Shown here one piece after another: positions 100 to 32,649 of a stretch of 35,443 bases of DNA. Under the pieces are notes generated by a model that worked only from the letters and a program-made list of their open reading frames with translations, made no database searches and was not told where the DNA came from. The translations under genes and the position numbers were made by a program. Where the stretch lies: positions 1 to 35,443 of the IMG/VR virus record IMGVR_UViG_3300045988_020417. The stretch is one strand, 5' to 3'. The DNA is from a virus. Each line of letters starts with the position of its first letter. The stretch's first letter is position 1.

Positions 100-394
100 G
101 CAATTCAAAGTGTTGACCAATGAACTTAGCATTCCAATTGTCCTGCTTAGTCAGTTGTCACGCGCAATTGAAAACCGGCAAGACAAGCAGCCAGTGCTAT
201 CAGACTTACGTGAATCAGGCTCAATTGAACAGGACAGCAACGCGGTTGGCTTTTTATGGAATAGCGACCGTTCAAACGCTCAATCAGATGTTCGCACGGT
301 GACTTTAAGTATTGCTAAAAATCGTGAAGGAGCACTTGGCAGTATTGATTTTAATTTCTTCGCACCAAAACTGCAGTTCAAGGTGGCGTTTTAA
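2..394 (+). CDS. dnaB: Replicative DNA helicase (DnaB-like), C-terminal part; continues from 34476..35443 across the circular junction
   Basis: The frame is open from the window edge. It is in phase with 34476..35443 once the 99-bp overlap is removed. C-terminal DnaB-like motifs are present (IVDYLGLIG, VLLSQLSR, LRESGSIEQD). Confidence 0.85.
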   Translation, partial: EADKGYLAIVDYLGLIGVRGQPDRRLQIEEITRQFKVLTNELSIPIVLLSQLSRAIENRQDKQPVLSDLRESGSIEQDSNAVGFLWNSDRSNAQSDVRTVTLSIAKNREGALGSIDFNFFAPKLQFKVAF

Positions 395-395
395 A

Positions 396-740
396 ATGGC
401 TTATCCAACTATGACACTTAAAGAGTTCAATGAGTACATGCAGGAGGGACATTATCAATACTCGCTGTTCGTTATTCTGCAGCTTGATGAAGCAGCGGAA
501 TATCTAAAAAAGGCGCAACAAGCCGATACTGGTATGAAGAAGTTTTGGTGCCAATGGGCATACGTGACATTAGTCGATGCGTTAGAGACGGCTGAATCAG
601 AATATTATGGGGAAACTAGCGCATATTTACCAACAAAAGAAACTGATCCAGTAACGCGGGCTTACTGCCAAAACACATACGATATTTGGCGAGGATACTT
701 GCAAAAGCTAAACGTGAGTTTACCAGAACAAAAATTTTGA
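396..740 (+). CDS. Hypothetical protein (114 aa)
   Basis: ATG at 396 lies 1 nt after the helicase stop (MAYPTMTLKEF...). I recognise no family. Confidence 0.6.
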   Translation: MAYPTMTLKEFNEYMQEGHYQYSLFVILQLDEAAEYLKKAQQADTGMKKFWCQWAYVTLVDALETAESEYYGETSAYLPTKETDPVTRAYCQNTYDIWRGYLQKLNVSLPEQKF

Positions 741-781
741 GGAGGCAAAAGCATGATTGAGCACAAGGACGTGAAGCCAGC

Positions 782-1195
782 GTGATAAGGCTAACAATAC
801 CCGGTGAGCCGGTTGCTCAAGGGCGGCCTAGGTTTTCTCGGCGAGGAAAGTATGTAAGCACGTATGATCCTCCCAAATCACGTGGATACAAAGAATACAT
901 CAAGCAGATTGCACGTCAGGAGCTCCATATTGAGCCTCTGACGGGTTCTATCAGGATAAACGTAAAAGTATACAGAGGTATTCAAAAATCCGGTAGCAAG
1001 CTTACTAGGCGGAAAAAACAGGACGGCATCATTAGACCAACTGTTAAGCCGGATACAGACAACTATTACAAAGCGGTGTCTGATGCGCTGACCGGGATTT
1101 TGTGGGAAGACGACAACCAAATAGTCGAAATCCATGTTGGCAAATGGTACAGCGATCAACCACGTGTTGAGATTGAAGCAGAAGAGATCGATTAA
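782..1195 (+). CDS. rusA: Holliday junction resolvase, RusA family
   Basis: GTG start. The N-terminus MIRLTIPGEPVAQGRPRF, plus KPDTDNYYKAVSDAL and WEDDNQIV, is the typical RusA layout. Confidence 0.85.
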   Translation: MIRLTIPGEPVAQGRPRFSRRGKYVSTYDPPKSRGYKEYIKQIARQELHIEPLTGSIRINVKVYRGIQKSGSKLTRRKKQDGIIRPTVKPDTDNYYKAVSDALTGILWEDDNQIVEIHVGKWYSDQPRVEIEAEEID

Positions 1196-1207
1196 GGAGA
1201 AAAAATC

Positions 1208-1339
1208 ATGAACAAAAGATTGGCGGTTACAGTAACTGTTTTAGAGCGAGCAGTTCTTCAACTCAATTACTTAAAAAAGAAGAACCCTGACGTTTACTAT
1301 GCAATGTTCGAGACTACCGGCTGGAGGTGTGTGCTATGA
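1208..1339 (+). CDS. Small hypothetical protein (43 aa), below the ORF-track cutoff
   Basis: AAGGAGA RBS at 1195..1201, followed by ATG 1208. The stop overlaps the next start (ATGA at 1336..1339). Confidence 0.5.
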   Translation: MNKRLAVTVTVLERAVLQLNYLKKKNPDVYYAMFETTGWRCVL

Positions 1340-1644
1340 GCAATGAAACTAAGCGGGACGTCAACGTCTTGCCAGAAGAAACCGAGCAGCAGAAGAACTG
1401 CCCATATTGTCATGAGACCGACCCACAATCAAAGCACGCACACTATGGCAAGGCCATTTCAGACAAGACAGAATATTTCGACGTCCGCAAAACGAAACTG
1501 TGCAGACGGGTGAAAGCGCGAATAAAATCTCCAGAAAACAAGCACCCGAAGCTGTGTGTCACGCAAATGAACCGATTCGGAGAAGTATCAGTCGTTTTGG
1601 ATATGGCAATTAACTATTGCCCAATTTGTAGGAGGAAATTATGA
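1336..1644 (+). CDS. Hypothetical zinc-ribbon protein (CPYC...CPIC)
   Basis: GGAGG RBS 8 nt upstream of ATG 1336. Two CxxC pairs lie near the N- and C-termini. Confidence 0.6.
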   Translation: MSNETKRDVNVLPEETEQQKNCPYCHETDPQSKHAHYGKAISDKTEYFDVRKTKLCRRVKARIKSPENKHPKLCVTQMNRFGEVSVVLDMAINYCPICRRKL

Positions 1645-3708: not shown

Positions 3709-4619
3709 TTGAAACAGTCAAAAAATGGAAACGCGGATTACCGTACGTTGGCAACAAGGGCCAAAAGGCAGAAAAGATCATCGACATCTTGCCTGCTGGC
3801 AACCGTCTCATTGACGTATTCGGAGGTGGCAGATCAATTAGCCTGACAGCAGCCTCATCCGGAAAATGGGACGAAGTAGTTTACAATGACAGGCGAAAAA
3901 CGGTTGTTAATCTGTTGAAAGCGTTAATCGAAGACAACCCACACTTCGATTTGATGGATTATGTATATATGGATCGCGAAACGTTTTACAACTGGCGAGA
4001 CAACATGCCTGATTCGATTGAGCGCACGCTTGTGTTGACCATTTGGAGCTTTAGCAACGGCCTAAACAGTTATTTGTGGGGAAAGAAAATCGAAAAAGAA
4101 AAATTGCAACTGACGCGGGCGCTTTTTTGGGGAGACACGGGGACGCAACTTGATGAGCTTTATGCATATGCAAAAAATGAAAACAGTATTTCGGGTAAAT
4201 ACAGGCTGTTTCACAAGTGGCGATTGGAAAAAATGAATATTCGCAGTCGCTATGACGTGCTCCAGCAACTGGCACGGCTGCAACAACTCGAGCGACTCCA
4301 GCAACTCGAGCGACTCCAGCAACTCGAGCGACTCCAGCAACTAAAATATTCAGTGCTTGACTATCGCTCACTCGACATCGGGCCTAGCGACATTGTCTAT
4401 TGTGATCCGCCATATATCGGAACAAGCAAAGACTATGGCGGCTTTGACGATGATGATTTTCAAAGCTGGCTCGCAAAATGTCCGGCAAAGCAAATATATA
4501 TCAGTGAATACACACAGCTGCCTCATACCGAGGTGGCTTTTATTATTGGCAAAAAGATATCTTTTCAAGCAAAAGGCAAGCGGCCGGAAGAACTACTGCT
4601 TAAATATGTAAAAGAATAA
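3709..4619 (+). CDS. N6-adenine DNA methyltransferase (D12/Dam class); N-terminus requires a -1 shift at 3720..3726
   Basis: Motif I DVFGGGRS and motif IV DPPY (YCDPPYIGT). The conserved N-terminal LPYVGNKGQKAEKIIDILP lies in the frame of ORF 3789..4619 but has no in-frame start codon. GGAGG(3696-3700) plus TTG 3709 is in the +1 frame. An A6 run joins the two frames. Confidence 0.75.
4257..4342. repeat. In-frame 18-bp tandem repeat inside the methyltransferase (LQQLER units)
   Basis: Three perfect copies of ctcgagcgactccagcaa at 4287, 4305 and 4323, preceded by about 1.5 degenerate copies. Confidence 0.95.
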
Positions 4620-5784: not shown

Positions 5785-6100
5785 CGGAATGAAGCGAGTC
5801 GAATATGGATATGTGAGCAACGTGGAGCAAGCAATAATTGAGAAACTATCGAGAGAAGAGAAACACATGCAAGCATTTATCTACACGAAGCCGCGCTGTC
5901 AAAAGTGCCGGCGAACAGTATTAAAACTGTCACGTGTAATGCCAGTACAAACAGTCACAGCGGACGCGGACGACTACGAGCGGTTCCGCAAGCTAGGCTA
6001 TCGTTCAATGCCAGTCGTAACAGTTTACAAGGCAGACGGCACACATGATGAATGGTGCGACTTGCGGGTTGACAAGATCAAACAATACACGGAAGACTAA
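5777..6100 (+). CDS. NrdH/glutaredoxin-like redoxin (alternative start ATG 5867)
   Basis: MQAFIYTKPRCQKCRRT...SMPVV is a thioredoxin-fold CxxC pattern like NrdH. The upstream ATG 5777 overlaps the preceding stop. Confidence 0.6.
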   Translation: MSNGMKRVEYGYVSNVEQAIIEKLSREEKHMQAFIYTKPRCQKCRRTVLKLSRVMPVQTVTADADDYERFRKLGYRSMPVVTVYKADGTHDEWCDLRVDKIKQYTED

Positions 6101-6136
6101 GAGCTCGTACAAATGCGGGAGGTGTGGTGATATGTA

Positions 6137-6607
6137 ATGGTTGAAAAAATCAAAAGTTTGCAGAATTTTTTAAAGTTACCTGAGAAACAGAAAAAAGCCG
6201 TTATGTTGCTGTTTTCAGGGGAAATGACGCAGGCAAAAATAGCGGAAGAAGTTAATGTTTCAGCGACAACGTTATCCACTTGGAAAACACACGAAGATTT
6301 TAGACGTGGGCAAGATGAATATACACGGTTTATGCTGCATGATTTATCATCTTCGGCCGTACTAACCATGAAAGAGCTATTGAATGCCAAGTCTGAAATG
6401 GTTCGATATAATGCCGCTTCATACATCATCGAAAAGGCTTTGAGCAGTGGTGACGAATTGAATAAACAACAGGCTCGCAAATCAAAGGCTGAGGCTGACA
6501 TCATGGAGGCCAAGGCCAAACGTGAAACTAGCGGAGACGGAACAGATGCTGTTAACGTCAATATCATCGTGCCAAATAGCAACGAGGAGCAGAAATATAA
6601 TGAGTAA
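6137..6607 (+). CDS. terS: Terminase small subunit (HTH type)
   Basis: 156 aa with the HTH MTQAKIAEEVNVSATTLSTWK. It sits directly upstream of TerL and overlaps its start. Confidence 0.65.
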   Translation: MVEKIKSLQNFLKLPEKQKKAVMLLFSGEMTQAKIAEEVNVSATTLSTWKTHEDFRRGQDEYTRFMLHDLSSSAVLTMKELLNAKSEMVRYNAASYIIEKALSSGDELNKQQARKSKAEADIMEAKAKRETSGDGTDAVNVNIIVPNSNEEQKYNE

Positions 6608-6930
6608 TATTACAATCGATATACCTAAAATCGTTTCACCTGCTTATTATCCGATGTTCACGAGCAATGCACGTTATCTCTCGTACAAGGGCAGTCGTGG
6701 ATCTGGCAAGTCAGTGGCCGCGGCTCGTAAGGTGATTGTGGATATACTACTTCACCCTTACGTCAACTGGCTGGTTATCCGGCAATACTTCGGTACACAC
6801 AAAGATTCCACTTTCGCAACCATAAAGAAGGCCGCAAGCGATCTCGGGGTATATGACCTTTTCAAGTTCACAGTGTCACCGCTTGAGATAACATATAAGC
6901 CTACTGGTCAAAAGATATTTTTCCGTGGGT
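6600..6930 (+). CDS. terL: Terminase large subunit, exon 1 (Walker A ATPase part)
   Basis: GAGGAG RBS. YKGSRGSGKS is the Walker A motif. Homology-like sequence ends at IFFRG, and the remaining ORF tail (TNQPTLNLINSVKG*) is intron read-through. Confidence 0.85.
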
Positions 6931-7035
6931 TAACAAACCAGCCCACGTTAAACCTCATTAATTCGGTTAAAGGCTAAACAGGCTAAGCTGTAGTTCAGAC
7001 CGAGCGTAGTTCTAGTATACAGCAGCCCCGGAAAA

Positions 7036-7044
7036 TGATATAAT
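7036..7044 (+). promoter_or_regulatory. Extended -10 element (TGaTATAAT) upstream of the GIY-YIG gene
   Basis: Exact TGnTATAAT match, 27 nt before ATG 7072. Confidence 0.45.
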
Positions 7045-7071
7045 GTCATTAGTGAAGGGGATGGAATTATC

Positions 7072-7557
7072 ATGTATTTAGTTTATTTATTTCAAGAAAA
7101 GTCAACAGGCAATGTTATTTACGTCGGTAGCACATCGAGAATGCAAGCACGATTGAAAGAACATAAGCGTGCGTTAGCCACTGGTAAAGGCGCTAGTAGA
7201 ATCCATAGATATATGAACTCTAAAAATTTAAAGCTGGTAAATGATGTTAGGATTATCTGGGAGTATAGTACTGATAACATGGAAGACATGCTAAAACATG
7301 AAGAATCAGAATATTACAAATGGCTACCAGCTGGTAATTTAATGAACGAGCGGCCTGGTGAAGATAGAAATGGATCTAACAATCCTAAGGCACGCGCTGT
7401 GCGTTGTTTTAACGATGGTAGAGTGTTTAAAACAATTTCTAGTGCTGCACGATATTATGGCATAACCCGACATGGAATTGATGATGTTATAAATGGACGC
7501 CGCAAGCAAACAGGACGCCGCAAGACTGGAATTGAATATAAATTTGAACGCGTGTAA
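7072..7557 (+). CDS. GIY-YIG homing endonuclease (intron-encoded)
   Basis: The N-terminus YLVYLFQEKSTGNVIYVGST...RLKEHK is a GIY-YIG module. The C-terminal repeat-like DNA-binding segment is AVRCFNDGRVFKTISSAARYYGITRHGI. Confidence 0.85.
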   Translation: MYLVYLFQEKSTGNVIYVGSTSRMQARLKEHKRALATGKGASRIHRYMNSKNLKLVNDVRIIWEYSTDNMEDMLKHEESEYYKWLPAGNLMNERPGEDRNGSNNPKARAVRCFNDGRVFKTISSAARYYGITRHGIDDVINGRRKQTGRRKTGIEYKFERV

Positions 7558-7702
7558 CGACTATCGAAAGCACCTTAAATGGTGAACGAGTAGAGTAAGC
7601 CCCAAGTGGGGTTGAAAGATGAGGGGCGAAAGCCAAGATATAGTCTGAACTTTATGGAAACATAGAGAGATATGTCGGGAACGGACATATCGTAACATAT
7701 TG

Positions 7703-8844
7703 TGGACGATGCGCTCAAGATAACCTCGATAACTACAGATGTCGGGGTTATTTGCCGTGAATGGATAGAGGAGGCTTACGAATTAAAGTCAAAATCGGCT
7801 TTTGAAACCGTTGAAGAATCCTTACGAGGCATTCTTCCTGATCCTCAAGGATTCTATCAGACCGTGATCACATTCAACCCGTGGAGCGACAGAAGCTGGC
7901 TTAAGAGTGAGTTCTTCGATGAAGATACGCGGAGACCCAACACGCGCAGTTTCACGACCACATACACGGATAACCCATGGTTAAATGATGACTACGTTGA
8001 AACCCTCAAGGACATGGTTAAGCGCAATCCTAACCGTGCCCGTGTCGCTGTATATGGAGACTGGGGCATTGCAGAAGGTCTTGTGTTTGATGGGCTGTTC
8101 GAGCAGCGCGATTTCAGTATGGAAGAGATAGCCACGTTGCCAAAAGCAGTCGGCCTTGACTTCGGTTTCAAGCATGACCCGACAGCGGGTGAGTTTATAG
8201 CCATTGATCAGCAGAACAGAGTCGTGTATATCTATGACGAGTTCTATCAGCAGGGGATGCTGACACAGCAGATTGCAGAGGCAATTGGGCAACACAAAGG
8301 CTATGGCTTGCAGATAACGGCTGATAGCGCCGAACAGAGGCTCATATCTGAGCTTTCAGGTGTATATGGTGTGCCAAACATCGTAGGCGCTGGCAAGGGA
8401 AAAGACAGCGTCTCACAGGGTATTCAATACATGCAGTCGTATCATTTCGTTGTTCATCCCCGTGTCAAGGGACTGTTGGAAGAATTCAACACTTACGTTT
8501 ATTCCAAAGACAAGTTTGACAACTGGACGAACACGCCTGAAGACGCTAATAACCATGCCTGCTTGACTGGTGATACATTGGTTGAAACTATTAACGGTAG
8601 CAAGCCAATCAGTGAGCTAGTAGGAAAAACTGGTAACGTTTATAGTCTTGACGCTGAAACTGGGAATGTAGTAGTTGATGAGTTTAGCAACGTATGCAAG
8701 ACAAGAAAACAAGCGGCAGTGTTTGAAATCGAATTAGAGGATGGGCGAACAGTCAAAGCAACAGCCGACCATAAGTTTCTTACCAAAGACGGTTGGAAAG
8801 AGTTAGCCGATTTAACAGAAGATGATGAGATTATCTCAATTTAA
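7703..8844 (+). CDS. terL: Terminase large subunit exon 2 (to 8559) fused to an N-terminal intein fragment (8560..8841)
   Basis: Walker B-like ICREWIEEA and nuclease-domain sequence run up to PEDANNHA. Intein blocks A (CLTGDTLVET) and B (TADHKFLT) follow, then a TAA stop. Confidence 0.8.
8560..8841 (+). mobile_element. Intein N-fragment (94 aa), terminated by a stop codon
   Basis: Cys1 at 8560; CLTGDTLV...GRTVKATADHKFLTKDGW. The frame closes at 8842..8844. Confidence 0.75.
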
Positions 8845-8865
8845 TGCGCCAAGATACTCCATGCA

Positions 8866-8874
8866 TGGTATAAT
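8866..8874 (+). promoter_or_regulatory. Extended -10 element (TGgTATAAT) upstream of the HNH gene
   Basis: Exact TGnTATAAT, followed by AGGAG (8882-8886) and ATG 8895. Confidence 0.45.
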
Positions 8875-8894
8875 GTATGTTAGGAGATGATTTT

Positions 8895-9530
8895 ATGAAA
8901 TCCATCACTGTAGACGGCTACCGTTTCGTAAAAGATGATCAAAGCGGTTATTGGCAATGCAACCAGTTCATTGCAAAAGAAGGAAAGCCGAAACGATTGC
9001 ACCGCTACGTCTGGGAAAAGTACCACGGTACAATAAAGCCCGGTTATGACGTCCACCACATTGACAAAAACAAAGACAACAACGATATTTCCAATTTGGT
9101 CTGTCTTTCTTCACATGACCACCAGCATTTGCACGGTGTTGAAAAGGTTAAAAACAACCATGAGTGGTTCGCTGAGTTTCACCAGCGTGGTATTGAATTA
9201 GCGCCTAAATGGCACGCTTCTGCTGAAGGACACGAGTGGCATTTAAAGCACTTCGAGGCGATGAAAGATAAACTGTACGCCAAAAAAGAATTTGTATGTG
9301 AACAATGTGGGAAAACATTTTCAGCACAAGATAACGGACACAACCGTTTCTGCTCCAACGCTTGCAAGTCAAAATGGCGTAGAAATAACCACATTGATGA
9401 TGTAGAAAGGACGTGTGTAATTTGTGGCACTAAATTCAGCGCAAACAAATATTCAAAAAAAGAAACCTGCTCACGTAGTTGTGCCTCAAAACTCTCGTTT
9501 GCAAAAAGGCGTGAAAATAAAGTCAATTAG
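8895..9530 (+). CDS. Free-standing HNH homing endonuclease between the two intein halves
   Basis: It has its own RBS and start, in a different frame from the intein. HNH core HHIDKNKDNNDISNLVCLSSHDHQHLH. C-terminal Cys-rich zinc-finger repeats (CEQCGKTF..C, CVICGTKF..C). Confidence 0.85.
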   Translation: MKSITVDGYRFVKDDQSGYWQCNQFIAKEGKPKRLHRYVWEKYHGTIKPGYDVHHIDKNKDNNDISNLVCLSSHDHQHLHGVEKVKNNHEWFAEFHQRGIELAPKWHASAEGHEWHLKHFEAMKDKLYAKKEFVCEQCGKTFSAQDNGHNRFCSNACKSKWRRNNHIDDVERTCVICGTKFSANKYSKKETCSRSCASKLSFAKRRENKVN

Positions 9531-9723
9531 TTTTTCCGGATATGAAGACGTTTATGACATGTATGTAAAGAACCACCATAACTTTGCTGTTAATGGTGGT
9601 TTTATTGTGCATAATTGTGACGCTTTGAGGTATGCGATGGAGCCGTTCACGTTCAGAACTGCCGGCCATTACATGAGCAACCAAGAACGCATTCAGACAA
9701 TCAAAAATTTAGGATTGGGGTGA
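9511..9723 (+). CDS. terL: Intein C-fragment (9511..9615, 35 aa) plus TerL C-extein (9616..9723); start uncertain (GTG 9511 or GTG 9424)
   Basis: (V/M)KIKSISFSGYEDVYDMYVKNHHNFAVNGGFIVHN followed by CDALRYAMEPF. Intein blocks F and G end in HN, then a +1 Cys. The extein carries the conserved terminase D-A-x-R-Y motif. Confidence 0.7.
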   Translation: MKIKSISFSGYEDVYDMYVKNHHNFAVNGGFIVHNCDALRYAMEPFTFRTAGHYMSNQERIQTIKNLGLG

Positions 9724-13462: not shown

Positions 13463-14380
13463 ATGGCTACAGAAAACAACGATTTACCAGTACGCATCTA
13501 TCAGAAGCAATTCATCGGTTTAATGCAAACCGTATTCGGTGTGCAAAGCACATTCACCCCAACATTCGGCGCACTGCAAGCACTCGATAGCGTTCAAAAC
13601 AACGCGATTGCGTTCAGTGTTAAAGCGAATGATGTGCCTGTTGCTGTTGGCACATACAACACTGATCCTAACGTGGCATTTGGCTCTGGCACCAGCAACT
13701 CTAACCGCTTCGGGCCAATGAAGGAAATTATCTATGGCGACATCGATGTACCATATTCCTTCGGCTGGAGTTTCAACGAAGGTATCGACCAGCTCACTGT
13801 CAACAACGATCTAAATGCTGCAGTGGCTGACCGCCTGAACTTGCAAGCACAAGCTAAGACGCGGCTGTTCAACAGCAAGCTGGGCGCCTACTTGGTTGCT
13901 AGTGCTGCGGCTGATCTTGGTGCGGTTGATGATGTCAACAAGGTATTCGAAGCGGCGTCCGAACGTTACACGGATCTTGAAGTCGTTGTTCCAGTTCGTG
14001 CATACGTTACTGCCGAAGTTTACAACGCAATCATCGACCACCAGTTGGTAACCAGCTCCAAAGGTTCTGCTGTGAACATCGACGAAAATGGCATCGTTCG
14101 TTTCCGCGACATCATTGTTACCAAGACGCCTACTCGTTACATGGCTGGCAAGGCCATCATCTTTGCACCTGATAACATTGGCCGTGCATTTACTGGCATC
14201 AACGTTGTTCGGACGATTCAATCCGAGAACTTTGCGGGCGTTGCTTTGCAAGGTGCCGGTAAGGCAGGTCAGTGGATCAGCGATGACAACCGTCAGGCAA
14301 TCTTCACTGCCGGGACGTCAGCAACTACCACGACCACTACAAAAGCTACAACGACAACCACAACTACTTCGCACGCTTAG
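13463..14380 (+). CDS. Major capsid protein with a Thr-rich C-terminal tail
   Basis: GGAGG RBS. 305 aa, positioned after the scaffold gene. The C-terminus is TSATTTTTTKATTTTTTTSHA. Confidence 0.8.
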   Translation: MATENNDLPVRIYQKQFIGLMQTVFGVQSTFTPTFGALQALDSVQNNAIAFSVKANDVPVAVGTYNTDPNVAFGSGTSNSNRFGPMKEIIYGDIDVPYSFGWSFNEGIDQLTVNNDLNAAVADRLNLQAQAKTRLFNSKLGAYLVASAAADLGAVDDVNKVFEAASERYTDLEVVVPVRAYVTAEVYNAIIDHQLVTSSKGSAVNIDENGIVRFRDIIVTKTPTRYMAGKAIIFAPDNIGRAFTGINVVRTIQSENFAGVALQGAGKAGQWISDDNRQAIFTAGTSATTTTTTKATTTTTTTSHA

Positions 14381-14448
14381 TTAATTGATGCAAGTCGCCT
14401 ATCGAAATAGGACAGTACGGGAAACCGGGCGGCTGATTGGAGGACAGA

Positions 14449-15327
14449 ATGAAACTCATCTTGTGTCAACCCGCTATTCAGAGATTTGAGTGGGAGCTGG
14501 AAGTCTGCCTAACCAATCTGCAAAGTGTCGGGTTTGACATGAAAGATGTCGTTTTGCTCTTCACTGTGCATGATTCTAAGGTGCCAGAAACGCTTTCCAG
14601 CAAACATGGAGTAGAAGTACACACGTATACTGACAAGCGCTCAGACAAGCAATATATCCCGTCTGTGAAGCCGTGGCTATGGTGGCAGTATCTTGCAGAA
14701 GACCATGAGCGTGAGAATGAAGACTATTTCTACTTCGACAGCGATGTGATCTTCCGTAAACGGCCAGACTTTCGCAAGCTGAAAGCAAAGCCTGATCGTT
14801 GGCTGTGCAGTAACACGCTTAGCTATATCAGTGTTGACTATATCAAGCAGTGCGAACACGGAGAAGAGATTCTGAAACGCATGGCTGACATTGTCGGAGT
14901 TACGGTAGCTTCGCTTGAAACAATCAACCACAATTCGGGTGGTGCCCAATGGCTCATCAGTCACCCGTCAACTGAATACTGGCGAAAGGTGTATGTCGAT
15001 AGCAACCGACTGTGGCAATACTTGCAGACAGTCGACAGCAATATCCAGAAATGGACCGCAGAAATGTGGGCGCAGTTGTGGAATATGATGTATTTCAACA
15101 TCGGACCCGTCATCAGCGATGAACTAGACTTTTGTTGGGCTACTGATCCAGTCAAGCGATGGAATGAAACCAAGATCATGCACAATGCTGGCGTGACCGT
15201 GAATGACAAACGCTTGTTCTTCAAAGGCAAGTACGTTAATCACACGCCGTTTGATGATGACCTTAGTTTTGTTGACAAGTCGAAGTGCTCATACAAGTAT
15301 GTGCAAGCAGTAAAGGCGGTGAAATGA
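14449..15327 (+). CDS. Putative GT-A fold nucleotide-sugar glycosyltransferase (GT8-like)
   Basis: GGAGG RBS 5 nt before ATG 14449. DxD motif in YFYFDSDVIF. A GT8-like layout: YIPSVKPWLWWQYL upstream, NSGGAQWLIS...YWRK downstream, and IMHNAG near the C-terminus. Confidence 0.55.
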   Translation: MKLILCQPAIQRFEWELEVCLTNLQSVGFDMKDVVLLFTVHDSKVPETLSSKHGVEVHTYTDKRSDKQYIPSVKPWLWWQYLAEDHERENEDYFYFDSDVIFRKRPDFRKLKAKPDRWLCSNTLSYISVDYIKQCEHGEEILKRMADIVGVTVASLETINHNSGGAQWLISHPSTEYWRKVYVDSNRLWQYLQTVDSNIQKWTAEMWAQLWNMMYFNIGPVISDELDFCWATDPVKRWNETKIMHNAGVTVNDKRLFFKGKYVNHTPFDDDLSFVDKSKCSYKYVQAVKAVK

Positions 15328-16709: not shown

Positions 16710-17360
16710 ATGGCAGTTCCAGTAAACAATGGCATTAAGTATGTAAAAGATACCCCTTATCGTGGTAAAGACGTTTGGTACTTTATCCAATCAACAGATC
16801 CTAAAGTAGCGCCCATTGGTAGCCCCGCAATCTTGCCGGCTCACCAAGAGTCCGGCGATACAAGTATCGAAGGCGATTCTCTTGATGAACAAACCAAGAT
16901 GGGTCGCGTTGTAGCAGCGTCAACCAATGAAGATAGTATTGAGCTAACGAGCTACATGGTTCCCGGGGACACCGCAAACGACATCATTATTGATGCCAAG
17001 CACAATGGCCGGCAAGTTAAGGTATGGCGCGTCATTGTTGATGAACGACTTGCAGTTGTCGAAGGCGACCACAAGGCTTATCCAGCAATGTTTGGCTATG
17101 GTATTGTCGACAGTGCCGACATTTCCGATGAAGACAGTTTCTCCGAAATGGACTTCACTTTGAACATCATCGGTAAATTGGCAGACAAGAACGCTGACGG
17201 TACGCCCGGCACCTTCCCTCTGTCTGACGATCAGGTGGCAGCACTTAGTGAACTGTACGACTACGAACGCCCAGGTGAAAAGCAAGGTGAATTTGCTGAC
17301 AGTGCAGTAACATCGACTACCACAAGCTCATCAACTACTACCACCACTTCACACGCTTAA
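16710..17360 (+). CDS. Major tail (tube) protein with a Thr/Ser-rich C-terminal tail
   Basis: 216 aa, positioned before the chaperone pair and the tape measure protein. The C-terminus is TSTTTSSSTTTTTSHA. Confidence 0.8.
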   Translation: MAVPVNNGIKYVKDTPYRGKDVWYFIQSTDPKVAPIGSPAILPAHQESGDTSIEGDSLDEQTKMGRVVAASTNEDSIELTSYMVPGDTANDIIIDAKHNGRQVKVWRVIVDERLAVVEGDHKAYPAMFGYGIVDSADISDEDSFSEMDFTLNIIGKLADKNADGTPGTFPLSDDQVAALSELYDYERPGEKQGEFADSAVTSTTTSSSTTTTTSHA

Positions 17361-17423
17361 TTAATCGCACACAGAGACGAGTAGGCTGCGGCCGATCTGA
17401 GACGACAATCTAGGAGGATATTC

Positions 17424-25483: not shown

Positions 25484-26644
25484 ATGTTTAGCAAATCAAG
25501 CAGCCTATCCAGGAGAAGGCCAATTGTTGACAAACTAGGGACCATGGTCTGGACTTACGATGCAAACGTGATTAAGCAACTTGATGCCGCAAAAGCTATC
25601 GGCCTAAAATACATGCGAATGAATGTGTATATCAAAAATAGTGCTCTTGATTCCGGCGTCGGTGACTTCTCAACATATGACTTTGCTATTGAAGCAGCAA
25701 TAAAGCGAGGATTTTCTCTCTTGATCTCCTTTCACGCTGAAACTCCTGTAGCCAACAACACAGAGACAAATTCACAGTTCACTCCGGAAAGACTGAACAC
25801 ATTCAAAGAATTGGTATCAGAATTCGTCTTGAACCATAAGGGCAACAATACTGTTTGGGAAGCCTTCAACGAAGCGAACGGCTCATTTTGGACAACATAT
25901 CCCGAGTCTAAGAGTGACGATGCAATCAAAGCATGGACTAACTTCGATATATGGCTCGGTGCATTTGTTAAAGAAAATGATCAAGGATCATCTTTTGCAA
26001 CTCTATGCTCCGTTGCATATTATGCGCAAGCAAAGGACAGCGTCCAAAAGGCCGATTCATTTGGTCTATTTGACGAAAATGCTGACCTTATAAGCTTCCA
26101 CCCCTATATTCCGTCTTATGCAAACTCTGGTCGTCCAGAAGTGCTAATTAGGGATTCTCCTTTGAGCGACTTATCGCCAAGAGCAAAGTCTTTGCCACTG
26201 ATTGCTACTGAATTTGGATATTCGCGTGATGTTGCTAGCCCTAAGTACAAGTGGCAAGGCCTTTGGTCAATGGCAGATGCAATCAAATATACTGTTAGAG
26301 AATCCCTGATTATGGACTATCTTGGTTGGCCAATAATCATACAATATTCATTGAGTGGCAGCAATTACAGTTTTCTTGGTCCGTATGCTTCGTTAACTCC
26401 GCTTGCATATGCTTATTATGACTTCATCAAAAGGATGAGGGGATTCTCTTTTTACAAAAAAATAAAAGTGATTGATAACCCGTCTGACTTCATGCAAGAC
26501 CTTTATTGCTTTGAATACCACAGCAAATCAAAAGTAATGATTGTATATTGGTCCCCAATTGGAGAAGCTACTCATTCCGTATCGATTAATGGGCAAACAA
26601 TGTCTCTTGATTTTTCTGAGAATCCTAAGTATTTGGAGTTATAG
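25484..26644 (+). CDS. Clan GH-A (GH5-like) TIM-barrel glycoside hydrolase, putative virion depolymerase
   Basis: VWEAFNEANG is an Asn-Glu acid/base motif and LIATEFGYS is a nucleophile Glu motif. Their spacing fits beta-4/beta-7 of clan GH-A enzymes. Confidence 0.55.
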   Translation: MFSKSSSLSRRRPIVDKLGTMVWTYDANVIKQLDAAKAIGLKYMRMNVYIKNSALDSGVGDFSTYDFAIEAAIKRGFSLLISFHAETPVANNTETNSQFTPERLNTFKELVSEFVLNHKGNNTVWEAFNEANGSFWTTYPESKSDDAIKAWTNFDIWLGAFVKENDQGSSFATLCSVAYYAQAKDSVQKADSFGLFDENADLISFHPYIPSYANSGRPEVLIRDSPLSDLSPRAKSLPLIATEFGYSRDVASPKYKWQGLWSMADAIKYTVRESLIMDYLGWPIIIQYSLSGSNYSFLGPYASLTPLAYAYYDFIKRMRGFSFYKKIKVIDNPSDFMQDLYCFEYHSKSKVMIVYWSPIGEATHSVSINGQTMSLDFSENPKYLEL

Positions 26645-27095: not shown

Positions 27096-27519
27096 TTGGA
27101 AAGTACGATTATTAAGCGTCAAATTCTGGCTGGCTTTGGTGCCAGCTTCTTTGTTGGTGATTCAAACGGTAGCGGCAGTCTTCGGTTACAACTGGGACTT
27201 TGCTAGTTTGGGTAAGGAACTCACTGCAGTGGTCAACGCAGTATTTGCACTGTTGACCATTGTGGGGGTTGCCGTTGACCCAACCACAGAAGGCGTCAGC
27301 GACAGCCAACAGGCGTTAGCTTACCCGGCACTCATTACCACCAAGGCAGCTAAGATCAAGGCCCTAGAGGATCAGATTAAGGCGCTGCAAGCGGATGAAG
27401 AGACCGATCAGGAAGCTTTAGAAGCTGCTAGTTCTGCGGCTCCAGCTGTCGCTCCGGCATCTTCAACAGCACCAGAACCAGCATCTGCAGCACCAGCAGC
27501 TAGTCAGGAGGCAAAATAA
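27085..27519 (+). CDS. Holin (phi LC3 family) with an Ala/Pro/Ser-rich C-terminal tail
   Basis: MKINWKVRLLSVKFWLALV...DPTTEGVSDSQQALAY is the phi-LC3 holin pattern. Confidence 0.8.
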   Translation: MKINWKVRLLSVKFWLALVPASLLVIQTVAAVFGYNWDFASLGKELTAVVNAVFALLTIVGVAVDPTTEGVSDSQQALAYPALITTKAAKIKALEDQIKALQADEETDQEALEAASSAAPAVAPASSTAPEPASAAPAASQEAK

Positions 27520-28640
27520 TGGTCTTACATGGTATTGATGTTGCATCTTATCAGCAGGGCATTGGCATTAGCGGCATGACCGCTGATTTCGTCATTGCAA
27601 AGGCAACCGAAGGGACAACCTATTTGAATCCGGCTTTTGCCGATCAGGTCAAGCAGACGTTGACATCAGGCAAGTTGCTTGGCGTCTATCACTTTGCAAG
27701 CGTTGGTAATGCACGGGATCAGGCCGCTTACTTTTTGAGCCAAGTCGGTGCATATGTTGGAAAGGCTGTCTTAGTGCTTGACTTCGAAGGGCCCGCAGTA
27801 AGTCAGGGCGTTGGCTGGGCGAAGCAGTGGCTGGATTACGTTAAAGCTAAGACCGGTGTGGCACCGATGATTTACATGGGGCTGTCTGACGAAAACCGGC
27901 TAGACTGGTCCAGTGTTGCTAACACCTATGGTTTGTGGGTTGCCCAGTACAATAACTATAATGCCGTTAACGGTTATCAGCCGCGTGATATGTATGGCAG
28001 CACGAAGAGCTGGCCTGATCCGGCGATTTTCCAATATACATCAGTTGGACGCTTGCCTGGTTGGGGTGGCAATCTTGACCTCAATGTCTTCTACGGCGAT
28101 CGCGCAGCATGGGCTGCTTATGCTGGTCAGGGTGCCAGCCCTCTTCCAACACCACCAGCTCCGCAACTGTCTGTTAAAAAGGTAAACGTAAGCTACGGCC
28201 TGCACTTGCTCGGTGGCAGCTGGCTTGATGAGGTTATTAATTTTGGCTCTGGTGACAACGGGTTTGCTGGATTGCCTAATCACCAACACGATCTGCTGTA
28301 CATTCGCGTTGATCATGGTAGCGTTAAGTATCGTGTTCACACAGTCAAGAGTGGTTGGCTGCCTTGGGTAACCAAAGGTGATCGCACTGATACGGTGAAC
28401 GGCTGCGCCGGTATTGCTGGTGAAGCGATTGATGGAGTCCAGATCATCTTTCTTACTCCTGATGGTGAGCCGTACCAGCAAGCGTATTACCGCAGTCAGA
28501 CGACACAACGGGCTGGCTGGCTTGGCGTTGTATGTGATGATGGCACGAGTTTGCCACAGTACACAGACACGTATGCTGGTGCGTTTGGTGAACCACTCGA
28601 CCGATTACAGATTGGAGTAGCAAATGGCAATCCGTATTGA
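27519..28640 (+). CDS. Endolysin: GH25 muramidase + three ChW-like cell-wall-binding repeats
   Basis: The N-terminus HGIDVASYQQGI...VIAKATEGTTY is GH25. The C-terminus has repeats with GWLPWV / AGWLGVV and ...IDGVQI / LDRLQI. Confidence 0.85.
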   Translation: MVLHGIDVASYQQGIGISGMTADFVIAKATEGTTYLNPAFADQVKQTLTSGKLLGVYHFASVGNARDQAAYFLSQVGAYVGKAVLVLDFEGPAVSQGVGWAKQWLDYVKAKTGVAPMIYMGLSDENRLDWSSVANTYGLWVAQYNNYNAVNGYQPRDMYGSTKSWPDPAIFQYTSVGRLPGWGGNLDLNVFYGDRAAWAAYAGQGASPLPTPPAPQLSVKKVNVSYGLHLLGGSWLDEVINFGSGDNGFAGLPNHQHDLLYIRVDHGSVKYRVHTVKSGWLPWVTKGDRTDTVNGCAGIAGEAIDGVQIIFLTPDGEPYQQAYYRSQTTQRAGWLGVVCDDGTSLPQYTDTYAGAFGEPLDRLQIGVANGNPY

Positions 28641-32099: not shown

Positions 32100-32112
32100 A
32101 GGAGTGTTAAGC

Positions 32113-32649
32113 ATGGATAAAGAAGTCTGGAAGGACGTTAAAGGCTACGAAGGATTATATCAGGTTAGTAACCTCGGCAGGGTGAGGAGCCTTGACCGAG
32201 TTAGCACGCAAGGGGAGCGCCTAAAAGGTAAGGTGCTCACCGGTGGCTTAAACCGTGACGGATATCTCGCGGTTGTCTTGTGTCGAAGTGGTGGTCAAAA
32301 GAATTATTTCATTCACCGCCTTGTTGCTCAAGCGTTCTTAGAGAACCCCGACAACTTGCCTGAAGTAAACCACAAAAATGAAGATAAGACAGACAATACA
32401 GTTGCCAATCTTGAGTGGTGTTCACATCGCTACAATATGAACTATGGCACTCACAACGAACGTGCGGCAAAAGGGCACGAAAAGCCCGTCTATGTCATAA
32501 CTGCTTCGGGACACCGCTACTATTTTAGCAGTATCAAGAAAGCGGCGGCGCTTCTCGGACTATACCATAGTGCCGTGTCTGACTGCCTAAATGGCAGGCA
32601 TAAACATCACCATGGTTTCTCTTTTGAGTGGGCGGAACAACACGCCTAA
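32113..32649 (+). CDS. Free-standing HNH homing endonuclease (NUMOD4 + HNH_3 type)
   Basis: AAGGAG RBS. EVWKDVKGYEGLYQVSNLGRVRS is NUMOD4. IHRLVAQAFLENPDNLPEVNHKNEDKTDNTVANLEW is the HNH core. Confidence 0.85.
   Translation: MDKEVWKDVKGYEGLYQVSNLGRVRSLDRVSTQGERLKGKVLTGGLNRDGYLAVVLCRSGGQKNYFIHRLVAQAFLENPDNLPEVNHKNEDKTDNTVANLEWCSHRYNMNYGTHNERAAKGHEKPVYVITASGHRYYFSSIKKAAALLGLYHSAVSDCLNGRHKHHHGFSFEWAEQHA

Follow-up and report, generated by a model that had tools for sequence, protein, structure and literature searches.

The DNA analysed here (the window) comprises 35,443 nucleotides, positions 1 to 35,443 of IMG/VR virus record IMGVR_UViG_3300045988_020417. It is a near-complete genome of a Coetzeevirus-like siphophage of Lacticaseibacillus, and its structural region shares 86.5% DNA identity with Lacticaseibacillus phage R3.3 (Coetzeevirus). 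Two of its structural proteins, the major capsid protein and the major tail (tail-tube) protein, end in short threonine-rich stretches, which we call tags, and the gene directly 3' of the capsid gene encodes a protein with a predicted glycosyltransferase (GT) fold. We consider here whether the tags are acceptors for sugars transferred by this protein.

Two structural proteins with threonine-rich C-termini

A first-pass annotation of the window had described both C-termini and their common finish of the TTTTSHA type, and it was exact in position and sequence (Table 1). The bipartite tag of the capsid protein recurs in 38 related capsids. As the annotation had also held, the two proteins are otherwise unrelated and belong, outside the tags, to different families (PHROG 840 and PHROG 238). 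The tail-tube protein is a member of the TP901-1 family (TIGR02126; E 8.7e-24; score 84.3 bits, cut-off 37) and is homologous to gp17.1 of phage SPP1 (PDB 5a20_H, E 1.1e-23). Its tag starts just past the position aligned to residue 170 of the 177-residue SPP1 protein. In SPP1, a frameshift appends an external FN3 domain at the C-terminus of gp17.1, and by analogy this homology supports an outward orientation of the tail-tube tag.

We counted an open reading frame (ORF) as tagged if it ended in at least five consecutive Thr residues (T{5,}) plus at most six further residues. Only two of the 101 stop-to-stop segments of at least 80 residues in the window had such an ending, namely the capsid and the tail-tube protein, and the Thr content outside the tags was 5–7% in both. 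Thus, a chance origin of the tags is excluded. The Thr codons of both tags are a mixture of ACT, ACC, ACG, and ACA. The DNA around the two stop codons is indeed similar, as had been proposed, with 18 matching positions in a pair of 20-mers.

Table 1. Coordinates of the tagged structural genes, the putative glycosyltransferase gene, and their sequence elements in the window
Feature	Position	Strand	Description
Major capsid protein gene	13463..14380	+	305 residues; PHROG 840 major head protein, E 5.6e-120; proposed substrate 1
Capsid C-terminal tag TSATTTTTTKATTTTTTTSHA	14315..14377	+	Two Thr runs with K-A between them; Ser/Thr 16/21; mixed codons
20-mer spanning the capsid stop codon ACTTCGCACGCTTAGTTAAT	14366..14385	+	18/20 identical to the tail-tube counterpart
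Spacer between capsid and GT genes	14381..14448	+	Holds the GT ribosome-binding site; conserved with R3.3 and R9.1; R9.1 copy also after the tail-tube gene
Orphan GT-A-fold glycosyltransferase gene	14449..15327	+	292 residues, soluble; proposed poly-Thr O-glycosyltransferase
DxD motif D97-S98-D99 (YFDSDV)	codons 14737..14745	+	After beta strand 92–95 in the model
His motif H245-N-A-G248	codons 15181..15192	+	Follows strand 243–245; candidate third metal ligand
Major tail (tail-tube) protein gene	16710..17360	+	216 residues; PHROG 238, E 1.9e-49; proposed substrate 2
Tail-tube C-terminal tag TSTTTSSSTTTTTSHA	17310..17357	+	Ser/Thr 14/16
20-mer spanning the tail-tube stop codon ACTTCACACGCTTAATTAAT	17346..17365	+	2 mismatches against the capsid counterpart

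A protein of glycosyltransferase fold encoded after the capsid gene

The gene that follows the capsid gene starts with ATG and is preceded by a GGAGG ribosome-binding site at 14440..14444. Its product matched PHROG 4417, a family of 'unknown function', over its entire length (E 8.1e-150, residues 1–292 on positions 1–292 of the 293-position profile). Attempts to name the protein by sequence gave empty results in Pfam, NCBIfam, and the PDB, the latter searched with phmmer and with a profile of 35 homologues. When the 35 family members were compared with Pfam at E ≤ 1, one member gave one weak match to a glycosyltransferase family (Glyco_tranf_2_4, E 0.063), and no sequence membership in a curated glycosyltransferase family such as PF01501 (Glyco_transf_8) was found. 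Homologues numbered 616 at E ≤ 1e-3 and were mostly unnamed; those with a named source came from Lacticaseibacillus, Enterococcus, Listeria, Lactiplantibacillus, Bacillaceae, and others. An exhaustive profile search of 1.84 billion representative proteins yielded 871 family clusters at 50% identity.

Fold comparison alone was informative. The AlphaFold2 model of the protein had a predicted local distance difference test score (pLDDT) of 96.8 and a predicted template modelling score (pTM) of 0.93. A Foldseek comparison of the model with the PDB returned 287 matches at E ≤ 1e-3, of which the best 50 were all GT-A enzymes. The top matches were the catalytic domain of UGGT, WbbM, glycogenin, LgtC, XXYLT1, and the ABO (GTA/GTB)/alpha-3-GalT enzymes, with E values of 3e-8 to 1e-6, template modelling (TM) scores of about 0.5, and sequence identities of 8–13%. 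Most of them are retaining enzymes with protein or glycan acceptors. In a library of viral structures, the model retrieved members of its own family first and then GT8-like viral glycosyltransferases.

Six residues were invariant in the 35 homologues, which share 51–79% identity with the query: D97, D99, H245, A247, G248, and K259. The resulting DxD...H layout is that of the Mn2+/uridine diphosphate (UDP)-sugar site of GT8-type enzymes such as LgtC and glycogenin, and the GT8-like fold of the model suggests H245 as a candidate third metal ligand. The well-defined fold and the invariant DxD and His residues thus bear out the first-pass annotation, which had called this gene glycosyltransferase-like. 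The maximum hydropathy over 19 residues was 1.12, and the protein therefore has no membrane segment. Long family members of 500–780 residues (P0178, P0162, P0258, and P0182) carry extra fused domains, namely Glycos_transf_2, Glyco_transf_7C, Methyltransf_24 (a weak match), and radical-SAM/SPASM, and these fusions would fit a role in glycan building. Pfam scans of the other ORFs of the window revealed no second glycosyltransferase and no sugar-nucleotide gene, but only a DNA N6-adenine methyltransferase.

These features bear on one alternative, according to which the tails are modified by host enzymes or trimmed during maturation, while the adjacent protein has a non-catalytic assembly role, for instance as a chaperone for tagged proteins. 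Lactobacilli and their relatives are generally known to have protein O-glycosylation systems of their own, and catalysis by the phage protein is only predicted. However, the invariant DxD and His residues, in a protein that shares 50–65% identity across genera, are signs of a conserved active site, and the fusions to GT2 and methyltransferase domains suggest enzymology. Tag and gene together span hosts from Clostridium to Staphylococcus as well as uncultured environmental phages, which argues against dependence on one host system. With regard to trimming, we found no protease in the head module of the window, although a scaffold protein is encoded there. We consider this alternative very improbable.

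Tag and enzyme gene occur together across phages

A tblastn search of 50,697 phage records (E ≤ 1e-5) found the GT in 77 of them, and a pattern search found it in at least 550 IMG/VR loci. At least one poly-Thr-tailed ORF lay on the strand of the GT gene in 91 of 92 loci. Such ORFs made up 169 of 4155 segments, and the opposite strand had none. They form 19 clusters that are not linked by BLAST and comprise capsids, tail tubes, and small decoration-like proteins with very long Thr-rich tails; a protein annotated as 'putative holin' in phage 1706 is also among them.

Thr-rich tails were present in all 15 GT-positive lineages that we sampled, whose hosts belong to Lacticaseibacillus, Enterococcus, Staphylococcus, Lactococcus, Clostridium, Listeria, Bacillaceae, and Erysipelotrichia. 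The tailed phages are R3.3, R9.1, iLp84, Enterococcus phages phiFL1A and VPE25, Staphylococcus phage SA2, Clostridium phage phiCTP1, Lactococcus phages bIL285 and 1706, and the L. plantarum myovirus Iacchus. Tails also occur in GT-positive prophages of Listeria monocytogenes, Shouchella clausii, and Anaerorhabdus. The GT of L. brevis phage 521B is 32% identical, and the protein encoded upstream of it ends in TTVKP/TTVAP repeats. All sampled lineages, among them strictly lytic phages of 85–140 kb, have a Thr-tagged gene directly 5' of the GT gene; in the window, 68 nucleotides lie between the end of the capsid tag and the GT start.

Close comparisons come from two structural lineages. Phage R9.1 (Pleetrevirus) has a capsid protein (349 residues) and a tail-tube protein (199 residues) that are unrelated to those of the window, and both end in TTTTTTSHV. 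Its GT, which shares 91% amino acid identity with that of the window, again follows the capsid gene. Four phages with capsid cores 96–97% identical to those of the GT-positive R9.1 and iLp84, namely CL1, iLp1308, R24.2, and JNU_P10, have no GT. Their capsids end in ...VLIPKP, where R9.1 has ...VLVPGKTTTTTTTSHV, and their tail tubes in ...GGSGTGA. In the genus of R3.3, phages Silenus, ATCC8014-B1, and phiJL-1 have capsid and tail-tube proteins 70–77% identical to those of the window (70–75% for the capsids and 74–77% for the tail tubes), and the capsid of Weissella phage WC29P3 is 54% identical. These four phages have neither GT nor tails; their capsids end in ...AIFTASPKA, whereas that of the window runs on as ...AIFTAGTSATTTTTTKATTTTTTTSHA. 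Thus, all eight GT-negative relatives are untagged, and tag and gene were gained and lost together. An exact test of the 15 tagged GT-positive lineages against the 8 untagged GT-negative ones gave about 2e-6, for lineages that are not independent of each other. The co-occurrence in relatives that the first-pass annotation had anticipated is therefore real.

The association also appeared from the opposite direction. Among 120 arbitrary IMG/VR loci containing (ACN)8, seven encode a GT of this family, against a background of about 550 in 2.9 million contigs. In all seven, a poly-Thr ORF lies immediately upstream of the GT gene on the same strand; in some cases, the Thr runs are internal linkers of proteins of 1600–2000 residues.

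Two further arrangements were seen next to the GT gene. In five uncultured IMG/VR phages (L182, L194, L147, L100, and L103), the GT follows very large (558–2069 residues) or small proteins. The Thr runs of these phages are internal linkers rather than C-terminal tails, which ties the GT family to poly-Thr tracts in general. Small proteins of 125–130 residues are encoded directly 5' of the GT gene in iLp84 (gp8; L003 6504..6881), Iacchus (L010 14610..14996), and the Shouchella prophage (L227 7605..7997). They consist of a short folded N-terminal part and 50–70 residues of Thr-rich repeats (TTTTTTTVKP and similar) and look like dedicated mucin-like decoration proteins, as judged from their sequences.

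Composition and spread of the tag

In 104 non-redundant tags, the last Thr run comprised 5–10 residues (median 6.5) and was followed by 1–6 residues, most often three. The Thr codons of these tags were 241 ACC, 221 ACT, 155 ACA, and 72 ACG. Given the mixed codons in the window and in the 104 tags, we rejected an origin of the Thr runs by slippage or as a simple repeat. The residues after the run vary widely (SHA, SHV, SHG, HG, SK, KK, AQG, QA, HHD, RHD, AGK, P, and others), and 43 of 74 loci show different endings on their own tagged ORFs, mostly capsid and tail tube. 'SHA' was accordingly rejected as a recognition motif, and we regard S-H-A as a lineage mark rather than the functional core because the endings vary among and within phages. 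The shared ...TTTTSHA finish emphasized in the first-pass annotation thus stands as a feature of the window, but what is conserved across relatives is the poly-Thr run.

The window and R9.1 resemble each other at DNA level from within the Thr-coding region onwards (query position 949, about 14348 in the window) and through the GT gene, although the capsids are unrelated. Within R9.1 (L002), a segment of about 105 nucleotides occurs twice with about 85% identity, at about 6000..6105 and about 9007..9110, behind the capsid gene and behind the tail-tube gene. The segment comprises the final Thr codons, S-H-V, the stop codon, and a 3' flank of about 70 nucleotides. The tag was thus duplicated at DNA level, as a cassette. 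The identical ends in the window reflect DNA-level copying of the tag cassette plus selection at the protein level. Protein-level selection had been proposed from the mixed codons; this proposal holds in so far as slippage is rejected, but the identity of the ends is also a matter of DNA copying. Tags thus spread in the form of DNA cassettes and are afterwards retained only in the presence of the GT. The spacer between the capsid and GT genes, considered as a structured RNA, terminator, or RNA family, gave no Rfam match, a non-significant folding z-score of –0.74, and no terminator-like site.

Could the shared tail end be mainly a recombination scar? The Thr repeat and its 3' flank would then be the junction of a mobile GT cassette and hitchhike with it, without serving as an acceptor. 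The onset of window/R9.1 similarity within the Thr-coding region of otherwise unrelated capsid genes, and the segment duplicated behind both R9.1 genes, are what such a scar would leave. However, the tail-tube tags are kept although they lie 2–3 kb from the GT gene, and the 19 unrelated tagged clusters have widely different flanks and terminal residues. The codons are mixed, and the run lengths are confined to 5–10. In distant phages, the Thr tracts adjoining the GT are internal linkers of proteins of 1600–2000 residues. The spread of DNA accounts for the movement of the tag, but not for its retention only alongside the GT. Hence, a mere scar is, in our judgement, highly unlikely.

Interpretation as a probable virion O-glycosylation module

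We consider it probable, on the basis of sequences and the structural model, that tag and enzyme form a two-part module for O-glycosylation of the virion. The first part would be the acceptor, a short and disordered tag at the C-termini of the two surface proteins of highest abundance, consisting of one or two runs of 5–10 Thr followed by 1–6 residues. The second part would be the single soluble enzyme of 292 residues, whose GT-A fold is of the retaining GT8/GT24/GT6 type and which has a putative metal site formed by DxD...H. Late in infection, the predicted enzyme would draw on a nucleotide sugar of the host, most likely a UDP-hexose in view of the nearest folds, and transfer the sugar onto Thr/Ser hydroxyls of the tails, probably many per tail. 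Capsid and tail tube would end up with a mucin-like brush. The first-pass annotation had likewise proposed O-glycosylation acceptors served by the adjacent gene. All computational checks, made on genes and a structural model, agree with this proposal, except that the acceptor would be poly-Thr and not TTTTSHA.

Several points weigh against this interpretation. The fold match is moderate, and GT-A-like folds include other nucleotide-diphospho transferases; the function of the enzyme is read from its fold and its association with the tags. An outward orientation of the capsid C-terminus is only putative. In the Shouchella prophage, neither capsid nor tail tube is tagged, and the small protein 5' of the GT is the sole tailed one, so that the choice of tagged proteins is variable. 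Glycoprotein staining was negative for ten unrelated phages (PMC12894461). Virion glycosylation is thus not general; none of the ten was shown to carry the poly-Thr/GT module. Finally, seven uncultured IMG/VR phages with poly-Thr tails, described below, have no GT of the PHROG 4417 family in the available DNA. The existence of such phages means that the tag is not strictly dependent on this GT family.

In these seven phages (L101, L136, L184, L196, and L220–L222), 2–5 structural ORFs end in pure poly-Thr runs. The tailed ORFs encode tail-tube, connector, and capsid-module proteins, and a phage often repeats the same last residues on them, as in L136 with two ...TTTTTTAP endings. A hidden member of the GT family directly downstream of the tagged ORFs was sought by hmmsearch in L101, L136, L184, L189, L196, and L205; none was detected (E > 0.1), and the ORFs found there look structural. 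L196 could be extended via its relatives and still showed no family GT. In L221, a GDP-mannose-4,6-dehydratase-like epimerase gene (311..1429, E 6e-38) adjoins a tagged ORF, and a weak methyltransferase match and an orphan ORF of 308 residues lie between the portal and scaffold genes. The orphan was compared with the GT family by hhalign and is unrelated to it. The genes of L221 hint that tags of this kind are served by other enzymes as well.

Tails without this GT family are also what one would expect if the tails were unmodified hydrophilic 'bristles' or disordered spacers and the GT acted elsewhere, for example on wall teichoic acid or polysaccharide of the host (superinfection exclusion) or on another phage component. 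Prophage glycosyltransferases that alter host surface glycans are commonly known, with examples for wall teichoic acid (PMC9863714). However, a tail that is independent of the enzyme does not explain why tag and gene appeared and disappeared jointly in two independent structural lineages, even between capsids that are 96–97% identical, or why the GT gene lies directly downstream of a Thr-tagged gene in all sampled lineages, strictly lytic ones included. The GT is, moreover, soluble, and its gene belongs to the late structural operon, where the capsid and GT genes are not separated by a terminator-like site. We therefore rate the bristle explanation as unlikely, though less so than the other two alternatives, and retain the glycosylation module as the preferred interpretation.

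We found no published report of glycosylated virions or poly-Thr tags in Bacillota phages; as coverage of the literature was incomplete, an earlier description is possible. Within the literature searched, there was no report of glycosylation or anomalous masses for VPE25, iLp84, PLE3, phiFL1A, bIL285, phiCTP1, or 1706, and a proteomic study of the GT-positive VPE25 does not mention virion glycosylation.

Comparison with known glycosylation systems

To our knowledge, a few mycobacteriophages are the only documented cases of virion glycosylation by phage-encoded enzymes, and in them it weakens recognition by antibodies. Freeman et al. reportedly located the acceptor region of the mycobacteriophages Che8, Corndog, and Myrna at the C-terminus in 2023. 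Mycobacteriophages modify capsid and tail tube with their own glycosyltransferases, and antibody binding is thereby reduced (summarized in PMC12363180). The glycosyltransferase and methyltransferase genes of Corndog lie inside the structural operon, between those for portal and protease (PMC4351075). The module proposed here resembles that system in targeting capsid and tail tube, the two most abundant surface proteins, and in the location of its gene within the structural operon, as in Corndog. In contrast, the GT of the window had no match in Mycobacterium phages (tblastn, 50,697 phage records), and among the 77 records with a match, a single one, from Arcanobacterium, belongs to the actinobacteriophage genera. 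Within this search of phage records, the GT thus showed no homology to Che8 gp110 or Corndog gp38. The window has a single gene, without the methyltransferase and the set of several glycosyltransferases of Che8 and Corndog. The acceptor is a recognizable, portable poly-Thr tag, the hosts are Bacillota instead of Actinomycetota, and glycosylation is predicted here. By analogy, the module would be the same in principle as mycobacteriophage virion glycosylation without being a member of that system. Its role could likewise be shielding from antibodies or other binders; solubility, protease resistance, or adhesion could also be served by the tail glycans.

With the retaining GT-A enzymes of the GT8/GT24/GT6 group (glycogenin, LgtC, UGGT, XXYLT1, and ABO), the GT shares the fold and the DxD motif after a strand, and its invariant His near the C-terminal part is a candidate equivalent of theirs. 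Glycogenin, UGGT, and XXYLT1 act on protein-linked acceptors, and the clostridial glucosylating toxins, which are related to the retaining GT-A group, O-glucosylate Thr. The GT of the window differs from this group in lacking sequence membership, with an identity of only 8–13% in structural alignments.

Mucin-type and serine-rich-repeat O-glycosylation, carried out by eukaryotic ppGalNAc-transferases and by GtfA/GtfB of streptococci and lactobacilli, respectively, uses dense Ser/Thr acceptors with multiple sites and produces extended, protease-resistant brushes. Some tagged phage proteins resemble mucin tracts in having long Thr-rich repeats with Pro, Ala, Lys, or Val spacers (TTTTTTTVKP, TTVAP). 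However, the mucin and serine-rich-repeat enzymes belong to other families (GtfA/B have a GT-B fold) and act on secreted or cell-wall substrates, whereas the phage tags are short (about 15–20 residues) and located at the extreme C-terminus of virion proteins that are assembled in the cytoplasm.

Tail tubes and capsids of siphophages can bear C-terminal surface decorations, such as the FN3 domain that a frameshift adds in SPP1 gp17.1* and Ig-like domains. The FN3 domain sits at the same end of the homologous tail-tube protein, and such decorations too are optional and exchanged in a mosaic manner. Unlike these, the appendage described here is a low-complexity peptide paired with an enzyme, with no folded domain and no frameshift. 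Virus-encoded glycosylation of capsids is also described for chloroviruses and mimiviruses (PMC4691112, PMC9614988). Like the phages considered here, these giant viruses have their own cytoplasmic glycosyltransferases for the major capsid protein, and GT8-like viral enzymes were the next-best fold matches of our model. They differ in their eukaryotic hosts, N-linked or atypical glycans, and large number of enzymes, and they have no poly-Thr C-terminal tag.

Other features of the window

The large terminase gene is split over 6522..9723. Its N-terminal part (6522..6977) covers positions 3–97 of Terminase_3 and is followed by an ORF for a GIY-YIG endonuclease (7072..7557). The remainder of the terminase continues into the N part of an intein (7702..8844); an ORF for an HNH endonuclease (8877..9530) and the C part of the intein (9424..9723) come next. 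As read from the sequence, the region looks like an intron-type homing-endonuclease insertion and an HNH-bearing intein in one gene. Another homing-type endonuclease, of the HNH/NUMOD type, is encoded at 32104..32649 between the HNHc_6 nuclease and SSB genes. The DNA N6-adenine methyltransferase mentioned above is of the D12 class and encoded at 3789..4619. A protein of the tail-tip region (25484..26644) gave a weak GH5 (cellulase-like) match (E 4.8e-7); its gene is located downstream of that for a BppU-like baseplate protein and upstream of that for a GH25 lysin (27519..28640).

Implications

The module predicts virion glycosylation in phages of dairy and probiotic Lacticaseibacillus, Lactococcus, and Lactiplantibacillus, as well as in candidate therapeutic phages of Enterococcus and Staphylococcus and in prophages of Listeria. 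It provides a functional hypothesis for PHROG 4417, at present annotated as 'hypothetical', with an acceptor tag that is readable from the sequence, and it accounts for the recurrent low-complexity tail on capsid and tail-tube genes. CL1 and iLp1308, set against iLp84 and R9.1, constitute natural, isogenic-like controls, as their capsids are 96–97% identical. If the interpretation is true, tag and enzyme represent a minimal pair for O-glycosylation in the cytoplasm. Surface glycans could also affect the immunogenicity of phages, their stability in milk or the gut, their adherence to mucus, and the identification of virion proteins by mass spectrometry, and such effects would bear on phage therapy and on the control of fermentations.

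A broader reading, which we hold tentatively and at slightly less than even chances, is that poly-Thr serves as a general, portable O-glycosylation 'sequon' of tailed phages. A C-terminal or linker Thr run and one soluble orphan GT-A enzyme would then travel as a self-contained, recombination-borne cassette. It would have been grafted independently onto no fewer than 19 unrelated virion proteins, in phages whose hosts are Lactobacillales, Bacillales, Clostridia, Erysipelotrichia, or uncultured hosts from the environment, and would give them a mucin-like coat of sugar. Phages such as L101, L136, and L196 would modify the same sequon with other sugar enzymes. If this is true, tag and enzyme would make up a two-component system for glycosylating phages or recombinant proteins programmably in the cytoplasm of bacteria. 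A sizeable share of dairy, gut, and clinical phages of Gram-positive bacteria (Enterococcus VPE25-like and Staphylococcus 6ec-like phages, Listeria prophages) would, moreover, be glycosylated without anyone having noticed.

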